NCBI GenBank assembly: GCA_965248355.1
Contig: OZ252098.1
Span: forward strand, 1,056,001 to 1,120,000
DNA: 64,000 nucleotides
Direction: 5' to 3'
From: Candidatus Latescibacterota bacterium
GTDB lineage: Bacteria; Latescibacterota; UBA2968; UBA8231
The notes under the pieces were generated by a model. The model saw nothing but the letters and a program-made list of their open reading frames with translations, made no database searches and was not told where the DNA came from. The translations under genes and the position numbers were made by a program. Of this stretch, positions 1-5,229 are shown piece after piece. The first letter of the stretch is position 1. Each line of letters begins with the position of its first letter.

Positions 1-1554
1 GCCCACGACGAACGGGACCACGCCTTCGCCCTCAAGTACGGCATCCCCGTCATCCAGGTCGTCGAGCCCCCCCCGGAGGCCGCCGGGGAGTTTCCCTACG
101 CGGGCGACGGAAGGTCGATCAACTCCCCCGGCGCAAGGGCAGGCGATCCGGCGGGGGAGGCCCATCCCTTCTGCATTTCGGGCTTGCCTACGGCCGAGGC
201 CAAGTCCCGCATCGTCGAGGCGCTGGAACAGGCAGGCCTGGGCCGCAGCGCTGTCAGCTACCGCCTTCGCGACTGGGTCTTTTCGCGTCAGCGCTATTGG
301 GGGGAACCCTTCCCCTTGGCGACGCACCCCGATGGGTACACCGTGGCCACCGGCCTGCCCGTGCGGCTGCCGGAGCGCGAGGATTTCAGGCCCACCACCT
401 CGGAGGATCCTGACACCCCGCTGAAGCCGCCTCTCGGACGAGCCGGACGGGAATGGACCCAGGTGGAGGTGGACGGCCAGACCTGTGACCGCGAGCTCAA
501 CGTCATGCCCCAATGGGCGGGCTCTTGCTGGTACTTCCTGCGGTTCATCGATCCCCACAACGACCGGGCCTTCTGCGACCCGGACAAGGAGAGGAGCTTC
601 ATGCCCGTCGATCTCTACATCGGCGGGGCCGAGCACGCCGTGCTGCACCTGCTGTACGCCAGGTTCTGGCACAAGGCGCTCTTCGACCTGGGGCACGTGA
701 GCTCTCCGGAGCCCTTCAAGAAGCAGTTCAGTCAGGGCATGGTCACCGCCGACGCCTTCACCGACCACCGCGGGGTGTACATCGACATCCGCCAGGTGGC
801 CTTCGACGCCAACGGCGAACCCGTTCACGCCCAGACAGGGCAGAGGCTGACCCGATTCCGCGGCAAGATGGGAAAACGCTACAAGAACGGCCCGCCCCCG
901 GAAGAGGTGGGGGAGGAGTACGGCGTCGACACACTGCGATTGTACGAGATGTACATGGGACCCCTGGAGCAGAGCGCCCCCTGGAGCATGGAGGGCATCC
1001 GCGGCATGCAGCGGGTCCTGCAGCGCATCTGGAGAAACCTGGTGGCCCAGGACGGGTCGGCCAAGATCGACGACGGCCCCGCACCCGACGGGCTGCGCAG
1101 GCTTCTGCATCGGACCACTGAGAGGATTACCTCCGACCTGGAGGCTCTCCGCTTCAATACCGCCATTGCCGCCCTGATCGAGCTCAACAACGAGCTGGTC
1201 CCGCTCGAGAGAGTGCCGGCGGAGGTGGCCCGGACGCTCATTCTCCTCCTGCACCCCCTGGCCCCACATCTCGGCGAGGAGCTCTGGGAGCGCTGCGGCT
1301 TTGGATCCGGGGATCTCTCCGCCCAGCCCTGGCCCGATTTCGACGAAGCCCTGACCAGGCGCGACACAATCGTTCTACCCGTGCAGGTCAACGGCAAAGT
1401 CCGGGCAACCATAGAGGTGCCGGCCACGACCTCCGAGGAGGCGGTGCGCCAGCAGGTGCTCGGCCTGGAGAATATCCAGAGACACCTGCCGGATTCGGGA
1501 CAGATAAAGAGACTGATCCTCGTCCCTGGGAGAATCGTGAACATCGTGGTCTGA
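1..1554 (+). CDS. leuS: Leucine--tRNA ligase (5' truncated by window)
   Basis: Frame 1 is open from base 1 (AHDERDHAFA). Motifs YRLRDWVFSRQRYWGEP, MPQWAGSCWY, YIGGAEHAVLHLLYARFWHK, VQVNGKVR. Confidence 0.98.
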   Translation, partial: AHDERDHAFALKYGIPVIQVVEPPPEAAGEFPYAGDGRSINSPGARAGDPAGEAHPFCISGLPTAEAKSRIVEALEQAGLGRSAVSYRLRDWVFSRQRYWGEPFPLATHPDGYTVATGLPVRLPEREDFRPTTSEDPDTPLKPPLGRAGREWTQVEVDGQTCDRELNVMPQWAGSCWYFLRFIDPHNDRAFCDPDKERSFMPVDLYIGGAEHAVLHLLYARFWHKALFDLGHVSSPEPFKKQFSQGMVTADAFTDHRGVYIDIRQVAFDANGEPVHAQTGQRLTRFRGKMGKRYKNGPPPEEVGEEYGVDTLRLYEMYMGPLEQSAPWSMEGIRGMQRVLQRIWRNLVAQDGSAKIDDGPAPDGLRRLLHRTTERITSDLEALRFNTAIAALIELNNELVPLERVPAEVARTLILLLHPLAPHLGEELWERCGFGSGDLSAQPWPDFDEALTRRDTIVLPVQVNGKVRATIEVPATTSEEAVRQQVLGLENIQRHLPDSGQIKRLILVPGRIVNIVV

Positions 1555-1604
1555 CGAATGGTCCAAGAGCGGCAACCCCAAGTGAGGGACAGGACATATC
1601 CTTA

Positions 1605-1632
1605 GATACGCATAATTTTGTTTATGTATACA
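1605..1632 (+). other. dif-like Xer recombination site 1
   Basis: GATACGCATAA-TTTTGT-TTATGTATACA: 11-6-11 layout resembling E. coli dif GGTGCGCATAA-TGTATA-TTATGTTAAAT, in an AT-rich patch. Confidence 0.65.
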
Positions 1633-1657
1633 CCGCAGCAAGGGCTCGCGGGTGGAT

Positions 1658-1685
1658 TATTTACATAATGCCGATTATATGGCTA
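1658..1685 (-). other. dif-like Xer recombination site 2 (left end of element)
   Basis: Minus strand TAGCCATATAA-TCGGCA-TTATGTAAATA; near-canonical XerD arm, divergent XerC arm. Confidence 0.7.
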
Positions 1686-1709
1686 TCGATGGAAGACCTC
1701 GTCCTCCAT

Positions 1710-1738
1710 TTGACAAGTGGAAGGTTACTTGGTATAAT
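1710..1738 (+). promoter_or_regulatory. Perfect-consensus sigma70 promoter for the recombinase
   Basis: TTGACA (1710-1715), 17 bp spacer, TATAAT (1733-1738), with an extended -10 TG at 1730-1731. Confidence 0.9.
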
Positions 1739-1782
1739 ATCCCTTATAGAAAGTAACGACCTCGTAACAAGGGCCTGAGAGC

Positions 1783-2742
1783 ATGCCCTCCAGTCGCAGC
1801 CCACAGACGGCCCCGGCAACCAGCAATCGTACCGACCTCCAGGTTCCCGTCTCCCAGGGCCTGGCCGATCTCTTCAGCGCTTCCATTTCCAGGAACACGG
1901 CCAAGGCCTACGAGGCCGCCCTTGTCCGCCTCGACGCCCGACTTGTCGGCGCGGCTCTTACAGATCACGCCTTCGCCGAATATCTCACCGAACTCCACCA
2001 CGAAGGCCGGGCCCCGAGCTCCATCGCCCTCGTCGTCTCCGCCGTGAAGTTCCGGGCCAAGCTCCAGGGCGTGTCGTCGCCGGTCGGTCCCATCACCAGC
2101 CGTGCCCTCGCCGGCATCCGGCGGGCCGGGAAATACCGCGGTCAGGGGCAGGTGCAAGGTGTCGGGTTTGCAGCCGCCGACGCTGCGGCCGCGGTCGCCG
2201 GCAGCGACGGCCAGAACCTCGCCGGCCTCCGCGACGCCGCATTGATCGCCATCGCCTCCGATGGCCTGTTGCGGGTCTCCGAAATCGCCGCTATCCAGGC
2301 CGCTGATGTAGAGCAAGCGGACGACGGCAGCGGCCGACTGACGATTCGCAGCTCAAAGACCGACCAGGAAGGGGCCGGCCAAGTGCTCTATCTGGGCGCC
2401 TCCACAATGCGCCGGGTGACGGCCTGGACCACCGCCGCCGGAATCACCTCGGGACCGCTGTTCGTCAGGGTCCGAAAGAACGGCCGCCTCGGCGACAAGG
2501 CCTTGTCCGCCGTCTCGGTCCGGCAGATCATCCGCACCCGATGCAAAGCCGCGGGCGTGGAGGGGCGCCTCTCAGGCCACTCCCTGAGGGTGGGAGGAGC
2601 CCAGTCCCTGGCGGCCGGGGGCGCCTCTGTCGTGGAAATGCAGCAGGCCGGCCGCTGGCAGTCGCCGAACATGCCCGGACACTATGCCAAAGGTCAGTTG
2701 GCCGCCCGGGGCGCTGTCGCTCGCATCCGCTACGGCCAGTAA
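1783..2742 (+). CDS. Cre-like tyrosine recombinase/integrase
   Basis: Catalytic set: R (GLLRVSEI), K (SKTDQ), HxxR (SGHSLRVG), W (GRWQS), Y (MPGHY). N-terminal core-binding domain (SRNTAKAY). Confidence 0.93.
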   Translation: MPSSRSPQTAPATSNRTDLQVPVSQGLADLFSASISRNTAKAYEAALVRLDARLVGAALTDHAFAEYLTELHHEGRAPSSIALVVSAVKFRAKLQGVSSPVGPITSRALAGIRRAGKYRGQGQVQGVGFAAADAAAAVAGSDGQNLAGLRDAALIAIASDGLLRVSEIAAIQAADVEQADDGSGRLTIRSSKTDQEGAGQVLYLGASTMRRVTAWTTAAGITSGPLFVRVRKNGRLGDKALSAVSVRQIIRTRCKAAGVEGRLSGHSLRVGGAQSLAAGGASVVEMQQAGRWQSPNMPGHYAKGQLAARGAVARIRYGQ

Positions 2743-2797
2743 GCCCTTCGGGCACTGGGACCAGGGGCCAGCCCTGTTCAGGCTCCCTTCAATCTGA

Positions 2798-2825
2798 AAC
2801 AAACATAATCTATATTATGCGCCTA
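2798..2825 (-). other. dif-like Xer recombination site 3 (right end of element)
   Basis: Minus strand TAGGCGCATAA-TATAGA-TTATGTTTGTT; near-canonical XerC arm and spacer, degenerate outer XerD arm. Confidence 0.75.
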
Positions 2826-2854
2826 CTAAAGGCTGGCCGAAGTGGATCGGGCCG

Positions 2855-4648
<1,794 letters not shown>

Positions 4649-4650
4649 GC

Positions 4651-5229
4651 TCAGAGCTCCGGCGTGATCTCCGAGACCCGGCGCTCGAACTCGGCCTGGG
4701 TCAGGCGCCCTTCCTCCAGATCCTGCCGGGCCCGGGCCAGACGCTCCCGTGGACTGCCCTCTCTCCGGTGCCTGCGGGCCTGCTGCACCAGATTGTACAG
4801 GCCGAAGAGGAGGAGGCCGCCCACGACGGCCAGCCATGCGAGCTCCCGCAGCCAGCGCCGATTGTCGGCCCCCATGACCACGGTCACACCGGAGGTGCGC
4901 CAACGAGCGAGCGCCTCGAGCACCAGGGCCCCTTCGGGCATGGGCAGGATGACATCCTTCGCGAGGACCCGGTGGCCCGCCTGCTCGATGACCACCGGTT
5001 GCCGCAGCCGTCCGATCAGCCTTCCCTCGGCCACCTCGACCCGCTCGACCATGTCCTGGGACACCAACTCCTCCATCCGTTCCAGGCCGATGCGGGTCTC
5101 GGCCGGAGCCAGCAGGCTGAGCAGGAGAAGGAGGCCGAGCAGGCCCGACGCAAGGAGCAGGGCCAGCGAGGTAGGCGACAAGGTGGGCGTCGGCTCGGGG
5201 CTTCCCCCCGCCTCAGGGGCTGTTGTCAC
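4651..5229 (-). CDS. Two-TM membrane protein with FtsH-extracellular-like region and C-terminal SHOCT-like motif
   Basis: GTG overlaps the upstream stop; two hydrophobic segments; C-terminus LEEGRLTQAEFERR. Confidence 0.65.
   Translation of the reverse strand: MTTAPEAGGSPEPTPTLSPTSLALLLASGLLGLLLLLSLLAPAETRIGLERMEELVSQDMVERVEVAEGRLIGRLRQPVVIEQAGHRVLAKDVILPMPEGALVLEALARWRTSGVTVVMGADNRRWLRELAWLAVVGGLLLFGLYNLVQQARRHRREGSPRERLARARQDLEEGRLTQAEFERRVSEITPEL

Follow-up and report, generated by a model that had tools for sequence, protein, structure and literature searches.

Between leuS and mutL, at a bacterial chromosome terminus, stands a single gene for a Cre-like tyrosine recombinase; what does it do there? 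The gene belongs to a genome of Candidatus Latescibacterota (GCA_965248355.1; genus g1, here called G000), assembled as the single contig OZ252098.1 of 5,503,661 bp. We analysed its forward-strand positions 1,056,001 to 1,120,000, a stretch of 64,000 nt that we call the window and by whose numbering features are given. The original prediction had read the gene as a recombinase-only element integrated into the chromosomal dif site. We found that the unit is a recombinase with a site of its own: a 34-bp lox-like site (1724-1757) and the Cre-like gene 26 bp downstream of it, in a dif-bounded slot between leuS and mutL. The window holds one recombinase-plus-site module where relatives hold another, built around a divergent Xer-like gene that we call xerX, rather than an insertion into a naive dif. 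The terminus recombination module has probably been swapped, and resolution of chromosome dimers is the probable task of the Cre/lox module. We put this full reading, a terminus-resident Cre/lox module that replaced xerX and resolves dimers, at a probability of about 0.5; its structural part, a module swap together with a lox-like site belonging to the enzyme, we consider likely.

The Cre-like gene and the lox-like site

Among solved proteins, phage P1 Cre is the closest to the gene product (P0001): residues 66-315 align with Cre 73-338 at E 2.2e-19. The likeness covers both domains, and the 17 best PDB matches are all Cre or Tre. R164, K192, H266, R269, W292 and Y301 of P0001 align with Cre R173, K201, H289, R292, W315 and Y324, the catalytic residues as listed in the accessible part of PMC10250229, and are invariant or nearly so in 29 homologs. 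The closest homologs (P0002-P0014) are 77-97% identical to P0001. On the NCBIfam models the protein scored 47.1 bits for XerA, 35.8 for XerD and 33.3 for XerC, against cut-offs of 220, 329.6 and 335.15, and XerS was absent among its NCBIfam model matches. By these comparisons the enzyme classifies as Cre-type and not as a member of the Xer family.

The accessible part of PMC10250229 describes Cre-type targets as two inverted arms of 13-15 bp around an 8-bp spacer, with at most 2 asymmetries and at most 1 kb from the gene, and reports that about 50% of the targets predicted by such a search rule were confirmed experimentally. At 1724-1757 the arms measure 13 bp and the spacer 8 bp, there are 2 asymmetries, and the ATG is 26 bp away. 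Palindromes of the 13-8-13 type that reach 11/13 or better number just five in the window, this one included. The site is single-copy in the G000 genome, and no second lox-like half-site was found within 6 kb of it. In a strain that is 93-96% identical it differs, among the differences listed, only at 1724 and by an insertion after 1756, both outermost positions. The left arm is one that we take to resemble the loxP arm in sequence.

We searched for similar sites at 68 homolog loci with full flanks, counting palindromes of the form ..TA-N8-TA.. at 10/13 or better. The 350 bp upstream of the genes (23.9 kb in total) held 10 of these, as against 2 in ∼309 kb of control flank, and arms are common to the window site and homolog sites (e.g., ATTACTTGCGATA in L120 and ATTACTTATGATA in L148). 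Among the loci without a strong palindrome upstream, a few (L097, L137, L139 and L141) have one downstream of the homolog instead. Since similar palindromes stand just upstream of many homologs, the lox-like site, and not dif, is the likely target of the Cre-like enzyme as judged from sequence. The original prediction had the enzyme target dif, which is not needed because a lox-like site adjoins the gene; it had overlooked both this palindrome and a third dif-like site, site A (1605-1632).

The lox-like site overlaps the −10 box of a sigma-70-type promoter. The promoter call is a consensus match only; promoter-like sites number 2 in 1400-3000 against a mean of 0.4 in shuffled sequences. Enzyme bound to the lox-like site would cover the −10 box and may in this way repress its own gene.

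Some homolog sites differ in arrangement. Cre-like genes on a contig titled Nitrosopumilus, an archaeon (L154:2974-3007), and on a Poribacteria contig (L144:2887-2920) have lox-like sites with identical 13-bp arms and different spacers, which reflects either cross-domain transfer or a binning error. At L119:2503-2523 and L121:2513-2533 a second lox-like half-site with reversed spacer lies ∼270 bp upstream of the main site, and the pair could delimit a small invertible segment before the gene. The closest homolog with known context, a copy outside the slot in G006 (L008:1380-1420; 72% identical), adjoins an AlpA-like gene and has a GC-rich perfect palindrome ∼45 bp upstream of its start in place of the AT-rich lox-like site.

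The terminus slot in this genome and its relatives

The locus is the terminus, or dif region, of the chromosome, as seen from the peak and change of GC skew and from a strand switch of skewed octamers. Cumulative GC skew has its maximum at ∼1.06 Mb (10-kb bins), close to where the window begins, and mean skew is +0.0155 over the 300 kb to the left of the locus and −0.0200 over the 300 kb to the right. G-rich skewed octamers switch strand between 1,062,123 and 1,063,385; as these motifs were picked with a terminus presumed near 1.058 Mb, the switch is informative for the fine position only.

At the skew switch stand three 28-bp sites of 11-6-11 layout, A, B and C, in place of one (Table 1). The core CATAA-N6-TTATR has 5 matches at three places in the window, compared with 0.00 in 100 shuffles, and genome-wide it occurs at the places of A, B and C only; the backwards control gave 0. 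The three also rank as the top three places of the genome in a scan with a 22-position consensus, which is somewhat circular because the consensus was drawn by eye from dif-like sites. Thus, the original prediction was right that a single Cre-like gene (open reading frame 1783-2742) stands between two directly oriented 11-6-11 sites, B and C, and that these are dif-like and lie at the terminus. Site A sits 25 bp to the left of B in opposite orientation. The spacers of the three sites all differ, and that of C (TCTATA on the plus strand) is the spacer of the mutL-proximal site in G006.

Table 1. Coordinates of the slot features and their borders in the window
Feature	Positions	Strand	Remarks
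leuS, 3′ part (leucyl-tRNA synthetase)	1..1554	+	left slot border; open frame to stop at 1552-1554
dif-like site A	1605..1632	+	GATACGCATAA-TTTTGT-TTATGTATACA; inverted relative to B and C; 5/22 mismatches to family consensus
dif-like site B	1658..1685	-	plus strand TATTTACATAA-TGCCGA-TTATATGGCTA; leuS-side arm 11/11 to consensus, gene-side arm degenerate
Promoter, sigma-70 type	1710..1738	+	TTGACA-17 nt-TATAAT, TG before −10 box; 12/12 consensus positions
lox-like site	1724..1757	+	GTTACTTGGTATA-ATATCCCT-TATAGAAAGTAAC; 13-8-13, 11/13 palindromic, asymmetric spacer; predicted enzyme target
Cre-like tyrosine recombinase gene (P0001)	1783..2742	+	319 aa; Cre match, catalytic residues aligned
dif-like site C	2798..2825	-	plus strand AACAAACATAA-TCTATA-TTATGCGCCTA; mutL-side arm fits consensus better, gene-side arm degenerate
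mutL	2855..4903	-	right slot border; open reading frame as listed; relatives' MutL 44-81% identical, ends beside slot

To see what the slot holds elsewhere, the mutL end was fetched from 11 relatives of the same family and from one of another family. Ten of the 11 carry xerX immediately downstream of mutL, and in 9 of these 10 leuS stands on the opposite side (the contig of G001 ends before leuS); the contig of the eleventh, G012, ends 64 nt past mutL. The leuS ends of the nine relatives in which leuS adjoins the slot are 58-87% identical over 517 aa. xerX encodes a tyrosine recombinase of ∼310-330 aa whose copies are 57-94% identical and reach 113-126 bits with the models for XerC and XerD. 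It is single-copy in 60 of 75 other genomes of the family and absent from all 92 genomes of the phylum's other families. Four of five tested family genomes without an xerX match also lacked a match to the mutL C-terminus, which points to assembly gaps as the explanation for much of this remainder; in G127 the neighbour is a different one.

Dif-like sites stand on both sides of xerX in six loci, 1.17-1.8 kb apart. Among the other slot loci G004 has a leuS-side pair and four have a single site, and none was found in three control loci. The leuS-side sites differ in number and orientation among the relatives, and G004 and G005, two of 11 xerX-bearing relatives, have no good mutL-proximal site. 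A nearly perfect palindrome is present upstream of xerX, AACCAACGATAA-TGACTG-TTATCGTTGGTT in G002, G004 and G006 with variants in others; its sequence AACGATAATGACTGTTATCGTT occurs once per genome in G002, G004, G006 and G007. Together, xerX and its unique palindrome (L081:4555-5800, L082:4747-5950 and equivalents), which lie between dif-like sites directly downstream of mutL, look like an undescribed single-recombinase dif module. In G004 the xerX gene (L087:3875-5014) is split by a frameshift after ∼residue 226, being either a pseudogene or an error in a metagenome-assembled genome.

G000 lacks this entire module and has the Cre/lox module where it would be expected. A tblastn search of G000 gave no xerX ortholog, the best match being 29% identical and to a XerD-like gene elsewhere, and AACGATAATGACTGTTATCGTT is absent from G000 at up to 3 mismatches. 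Because the slot of the relatives holds the xerX module and G000 lacks both of its parts, we conclude that one module probably replaced the other. The original prediction had expected a single intact dif at empty sites; an empty slot was seen in none of the 10 family relatives with an assembled slot, all of which hold xerX. It had also taken B and C for ends made by the element, and such B- and C-type sites probably predate the Cre-like gene, since the xerX slot of the relatives lies between dif-like sites as well. In families f2 and f3 neither leuS nor xerX was found within 1.5 kb of the mutL end, and they therefore provide no empty-site comparator. Outside the sites, intergenic sequences of the relatives have diverged too far for the boundaries of the swap to be placed.

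A second case was found in genus g22 of the same family, where all three species (G121, G122 and G123) have a Cre-like gene in the leuS-mutL slot and no xerX. Two of them are the only slot loci among 98 homolog loci from public genomes and metagenomes; a scan of metagenomes gave 18 homolog loci, none above 75% identity in the best segment and none in the slot. A lox-like site is present at the equivalent place in all three species: that of G123, ATTAGTTTGTATA-ATTCACGT-TATCAAAACTAAT, is palindromic at 11/13, and in G122 and G121 each of the two arms is still similar to the family consensus. Identity among the g22 genes is 82-86%, with the same ranking as for LeuS (87-94%) and MutL (83-92%), and their dN/dS is 0.10-0.13. 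As the identities track those of LeuS and MutL and dN/dS is low, the g22 gene fits vertical descent under purifying selection.

The slot copies of g22 and G000 were acquired independently. A tree with the four slot copies as one clade was rejected (delta lnL 71.6, P of the approximately unbiased test 1.9e-72; 28 rows, with L212 and L214 excluded for their long branches), and the G000 copy pairs with the G006 copy outside the slot at a support of 100/100. Because the slot copies do not form a single clade, slot status must have changed at least twice.

A deletion of ∼40 bp in G122, as compared with G121, leaves half of the mutL-proximal dif-like site (L096:3925-4055), and TTACATAA-N6-TTATR at up to 1 mismatch had no match in the 93%-complete G122 genome. 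In the 93-96% identical strain, 2742-2834, site C included, is swapped for 55 other letters. We considered whether dif sites decay once Cre/lox is present, and dropped the idea as the xerX-bearing G004 and G005 also lack a good site. Other variation around the sites was seen in contigs: among the differences listed, other samples show polymorphism in site B at 1658, 1660 and 1672, and a 9-nt duplication abuts site A in the 93-96% identical strain. The outer arm of site A, GATACGCATAA (1605-1615), is also one arm of the second leuS-side site of G004 (L087 ∼5007-5034), in opposite orientation, which hints at a past rearrangement among dif-like sites.

The stretch 1400-3000 is covered in full, with 2 differences, by a 3,949-nt contig of independent origin (another study), which excludes an artefact of assembly, and the same arrangement is present in contigs of other studies. 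No B-C or A-C joint was seen in contigs of other samples, which cannot reveal rare excision or inversion forms. The contig joints that were reported lie inside the Cre-like gene at conserved motifs and derive from other paralogs. In metagenomes, contig depth rises 5- to 15-fold at 2318-2425 and 2588-2749, the two most conserved motif regions of the gene, so that many paralogous Cre-like genes must be present in the same samples. Contigs of an RNA-library run, X19, cover 1400-2351 and 2619-3000 at ∼93% likeness (the run contained a small share of the searched words); we do not read them as evidence of transcription, as such libraries may also contain DNA.

The Xer background of the family bears on what the slot might do. 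Genomes of genus g1 have a XerD-like gene (∼290-300 bits), a XerC-like gene (∼145-160 bits) and xerX; in G000 the last of these is missing. Families f2 and f3 also lack xerX, and their XerD and XerC are strong. An alignment of the XerC-like proteins of 13 family genomes showed that 12 of them, that of G000 among these, lack the histidine of the HxxR motif and the catalytic tyrosine, and only that of G012 is intact. The G000 copy lies outside the window (L094:3238-4545; G000:C1:2237684-2238544), is 83% identical to that of G006 and has the AHPRA motif at its C-terminus; it appears to be a recombinase that is conserved but catalytically dead. The XerD-like protein of G000 keeps the HxxR histidine and the tyrosine, and an FtsK with gamma domain is present. 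G000 therefore has no catalytically competent pair of XerC and XerD, its XerC-like protein being degenerate, and because the catalytic residues of this partner are missing, it looks unlikely that A, B or C is recombined by two Xer enzymes in the canonical way.

Mechanism and competing explanations

We propose that the Cre-like enzyme would bind the two 13-bp arms of the single lox-like site and, in a dimer of sister chromosomes, recombine the two sister copies of this site at the septum. Translocation by FtsK would aid the reaction and provide simple synapsis, which we suggest because engineered Cre-loxP at the Escherichia coli terminus acts in this way. The sites A, B and C would belong to the slot and not to the Cre-like enzyme, and may have served as landing or exchange points when the module arrived. 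The suggestion of an alternative dimer-resolution system was among the options of the original prediction, and it is the one that we favour. A broader picture is more tentative: dimer resolution in this family would be a plug-in module in a dif-bounded terminus slot, where a Xer-like gene with its palindrome did the job after XerC lost catalysis and was swapped at least twice for Cre/lox.

Several observations weigh against the proposal. A strong upstream lox-like palindrome is missing at 58 of the 68 homolog loci (10 have one), and in g22 the palindromes of G122 (7/13) and G121 (5/13), both counted by hand, are weak. Within genus g1 the slot gene occurs in G000 only, one of 10 species, which shows a recent arrival there. 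Site A has no change among the differences listed in the 93-96% identical strains. With an intact XerD-like protein and three dif-like sites, a Xer route at dif, or catalysis by XerD only, is possible. The labels "XerC-type" and "XerD-type" for the arms of these sites follow what we take to be the E. coli dif. A quick tree had been viewed before the group of slot copies was named for the clade test. The organisms are uncultured, and enzyme activity, site binding and phenotype are predictions from sequence. Finally, most members of the Cre-like family are multi-copy mobile genes, present in many phyla at several copies to a genome, and the gene in the slot could thus be no more than a passenger.

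This last point carries over into an alternative that we regard as improbable, namely that a selfish mobile gene of Cre/lox type happened to settle in an intergenic slot that tolerates it, with the lox-like site as its attachment site and no benefit to the host. The family is indeed large (1134 of 8000 candidate proteins at E 1e-20 or better), and truncated Cre-like fragments lie outside the slot in G007 and G020. A chance lodger would, however, have displaced a gene that is single-copy across the family together with its unique site, and have taken the same slot twice independently. The gene was moreover kept through speciation in g22 under a dN/dS of 0.10-0.13, there is a single complete site per chromosome with no second site, and the arrangement is the same in contigs of other studies.

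It is likewise unlikely that an IMEX-like element (integrative mobile element exploiting Xer) entered the chromosomal dif by Xer-type recombination, leaving B and C as hybrid ends, with the Cre-like enzyme acting or helping at the dif-like sites. The position at the terminus is in accordance with such an entry, as is the placement of B and C as direct repeats around the gene, with outer arms that match the family consensus at 19/22 positions and inner arms at 13/22 (manual count), a difference that the original prediction had rightly noted. The varying number and orientation of leuS-side sites in the relatives would be expected of a repeatedly used site, and the independent entry of Cre-like genes in two lineages suggests a landing pad. 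Against this, no assembled slot of a relative is without a recombinase gene, and the B- and C-type sites, which also flank xerX, were probably not created by this insertion. The homologs, which had been expected to be flanked by dif-like pairs, are not linked to dif: of the 98 homolog loci just the two of g22 are in the slot, and a dif-like core is missing altogether at 70 of 80 genome-contig loci. In addition, the enzyme has a lox-like site of its own, the spacers of A, B and C all differ, and the XerC-like partner lacks its catalytic residues.

How the module arrived is a separate matter from what it does. IMEX-like integration or cassette exchange at the dif-like sites is possible also for a swapped Cre/lox module: the better outer and poorer inner arms of B and C, the varying leuS-side sites and the two independent arrivals all fit IMEX-like entry or exchange. 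The equivalent sites around xerX count on the other side, and the flanks are too diverged for breakpoints to be located.

Highly improbable is an invertible cassette, in which recombination between A and C would flip the 1.2-kb segment as a switch. A and C do form an inverted repeat (19 nt, 84% complementary), and an inverted pair of sites also bounds the slot in several relatives (manual reading). The spacers differ, however (TTTTGT in A and TATAGA in C, read in the same direction), and since leuS and mutL converge on the slot, a flip would bring no obvious gain or loss of a promoter. The mutL start probably lies further in than that of the listed open reading frame.

Joint action of the Cre-like enzyme and the XerD-like protein on the dif-like sites, in replacement of the dead XerC-like partner or of xerX, is just as improbable: the XerC-like protein is degenerate and the XerD-like one intact, and the lox-like site read as 11-6-11 has the ATAA-N6-TTAT core in common with the dif-like sites, but the enzyme has a two-armed site of its own and we know of no mixed tetramer of Cre-type and Xer-type recombinases.

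Relation to known systems and significance

Chromosome dimers are known to be resolved by enzymes of the Xer family (XerCD, XerS, XerH, XerA and XerL). A search of titles and abstracts, with subscription journals outside its coverage, found no natural Cre-like system at a chromosomal terminus. The closest counterpart is an engineered one: in E. coli, Cre-loxP placed within ter substitutes for XerCD-dif in an FtsK-dependent manner, according to the accessible part of PMC2680272. The engineered dif::loxP shares with our locus the Cre-type system at ter and the mechanism that we propose. The present case, in contrast, is a natural one, found in two lineages, one of which retained it across speciation.

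In its parts the module resembles Cre/loxP of phage P1, Vika/vox and the YR series, as far as these are described in PMC10250229: it has a Cre relative with both domains and the full catalytic set, and beside the gene a 34-bp site with 13-bp inverted arms and an asymmetric 8-bp spacer. Unlike these phage or plasmid systems, it is chromosomal, has a single site and lies at the terminus between housekeeping genes; its site overlaps the promoter of its own gene and is a target predicted from sequence.

In its layout the module resembles XerS/difSL, XerH/difH and XerL/dif, each with one recombinase gene and one linked site at the terminus (PMC1914069, PMC5357621 and PMC9765430, in their accessible parts). 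The genes of single-recombinase Xer systems adjoin their own site as one module (PMC1914069, PMC5357621, same parts), and the Cre-like gene likewise stands beside a single site, at the terminus, with one site per chromosome. The xerX gene and palindrome of the relatives also resemble a module of this type. The enzyme in G000 differs in being Cre-type (33-47 bits on the Xer models), and its genome also has dif-like sites and a XerD-like gene.

IMEX (CTX-phi, TLC-phi, the gonococcal island and LME-1) share with the locus foreign DNA at dif between direct dif-like sites, with one better and one worse site half on each side, as described in the accessible parts of PMC5357621 and PMC9765430. By the same sources they use host Xer and carry a dif mimic, whereas the locus has its own recombinase and a non-dif site; nor do its relatives have an empty site, and the flanking sites are probably older than the unit. 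The locus thus resembles IMEX in place and flanks but lacks two of their defining features, the empty site and the absence of a recombinase of their own.

If the proposal is true, the locus would be a natural Cre/lox system acting as chromosome dimer resolvase, which Cre/lox has until now been known to do in engineered E. coli alone. Dimer resolution by a natural Cre-type enzyme would add a new enzyme class to this housekeeping function, and it would mean that the terminus can exchange complete resolution modules in the manner of cassettes. Parts that can be tested are a new Cre-type enzyme and its predicted 34-bp target, to which the relatives add a second pair of recombinase and site. The locus also prompts one to ask what role the conserved, apparently catalytically dead XerC-like protein and the paired dif-like sites have in these bacteria.

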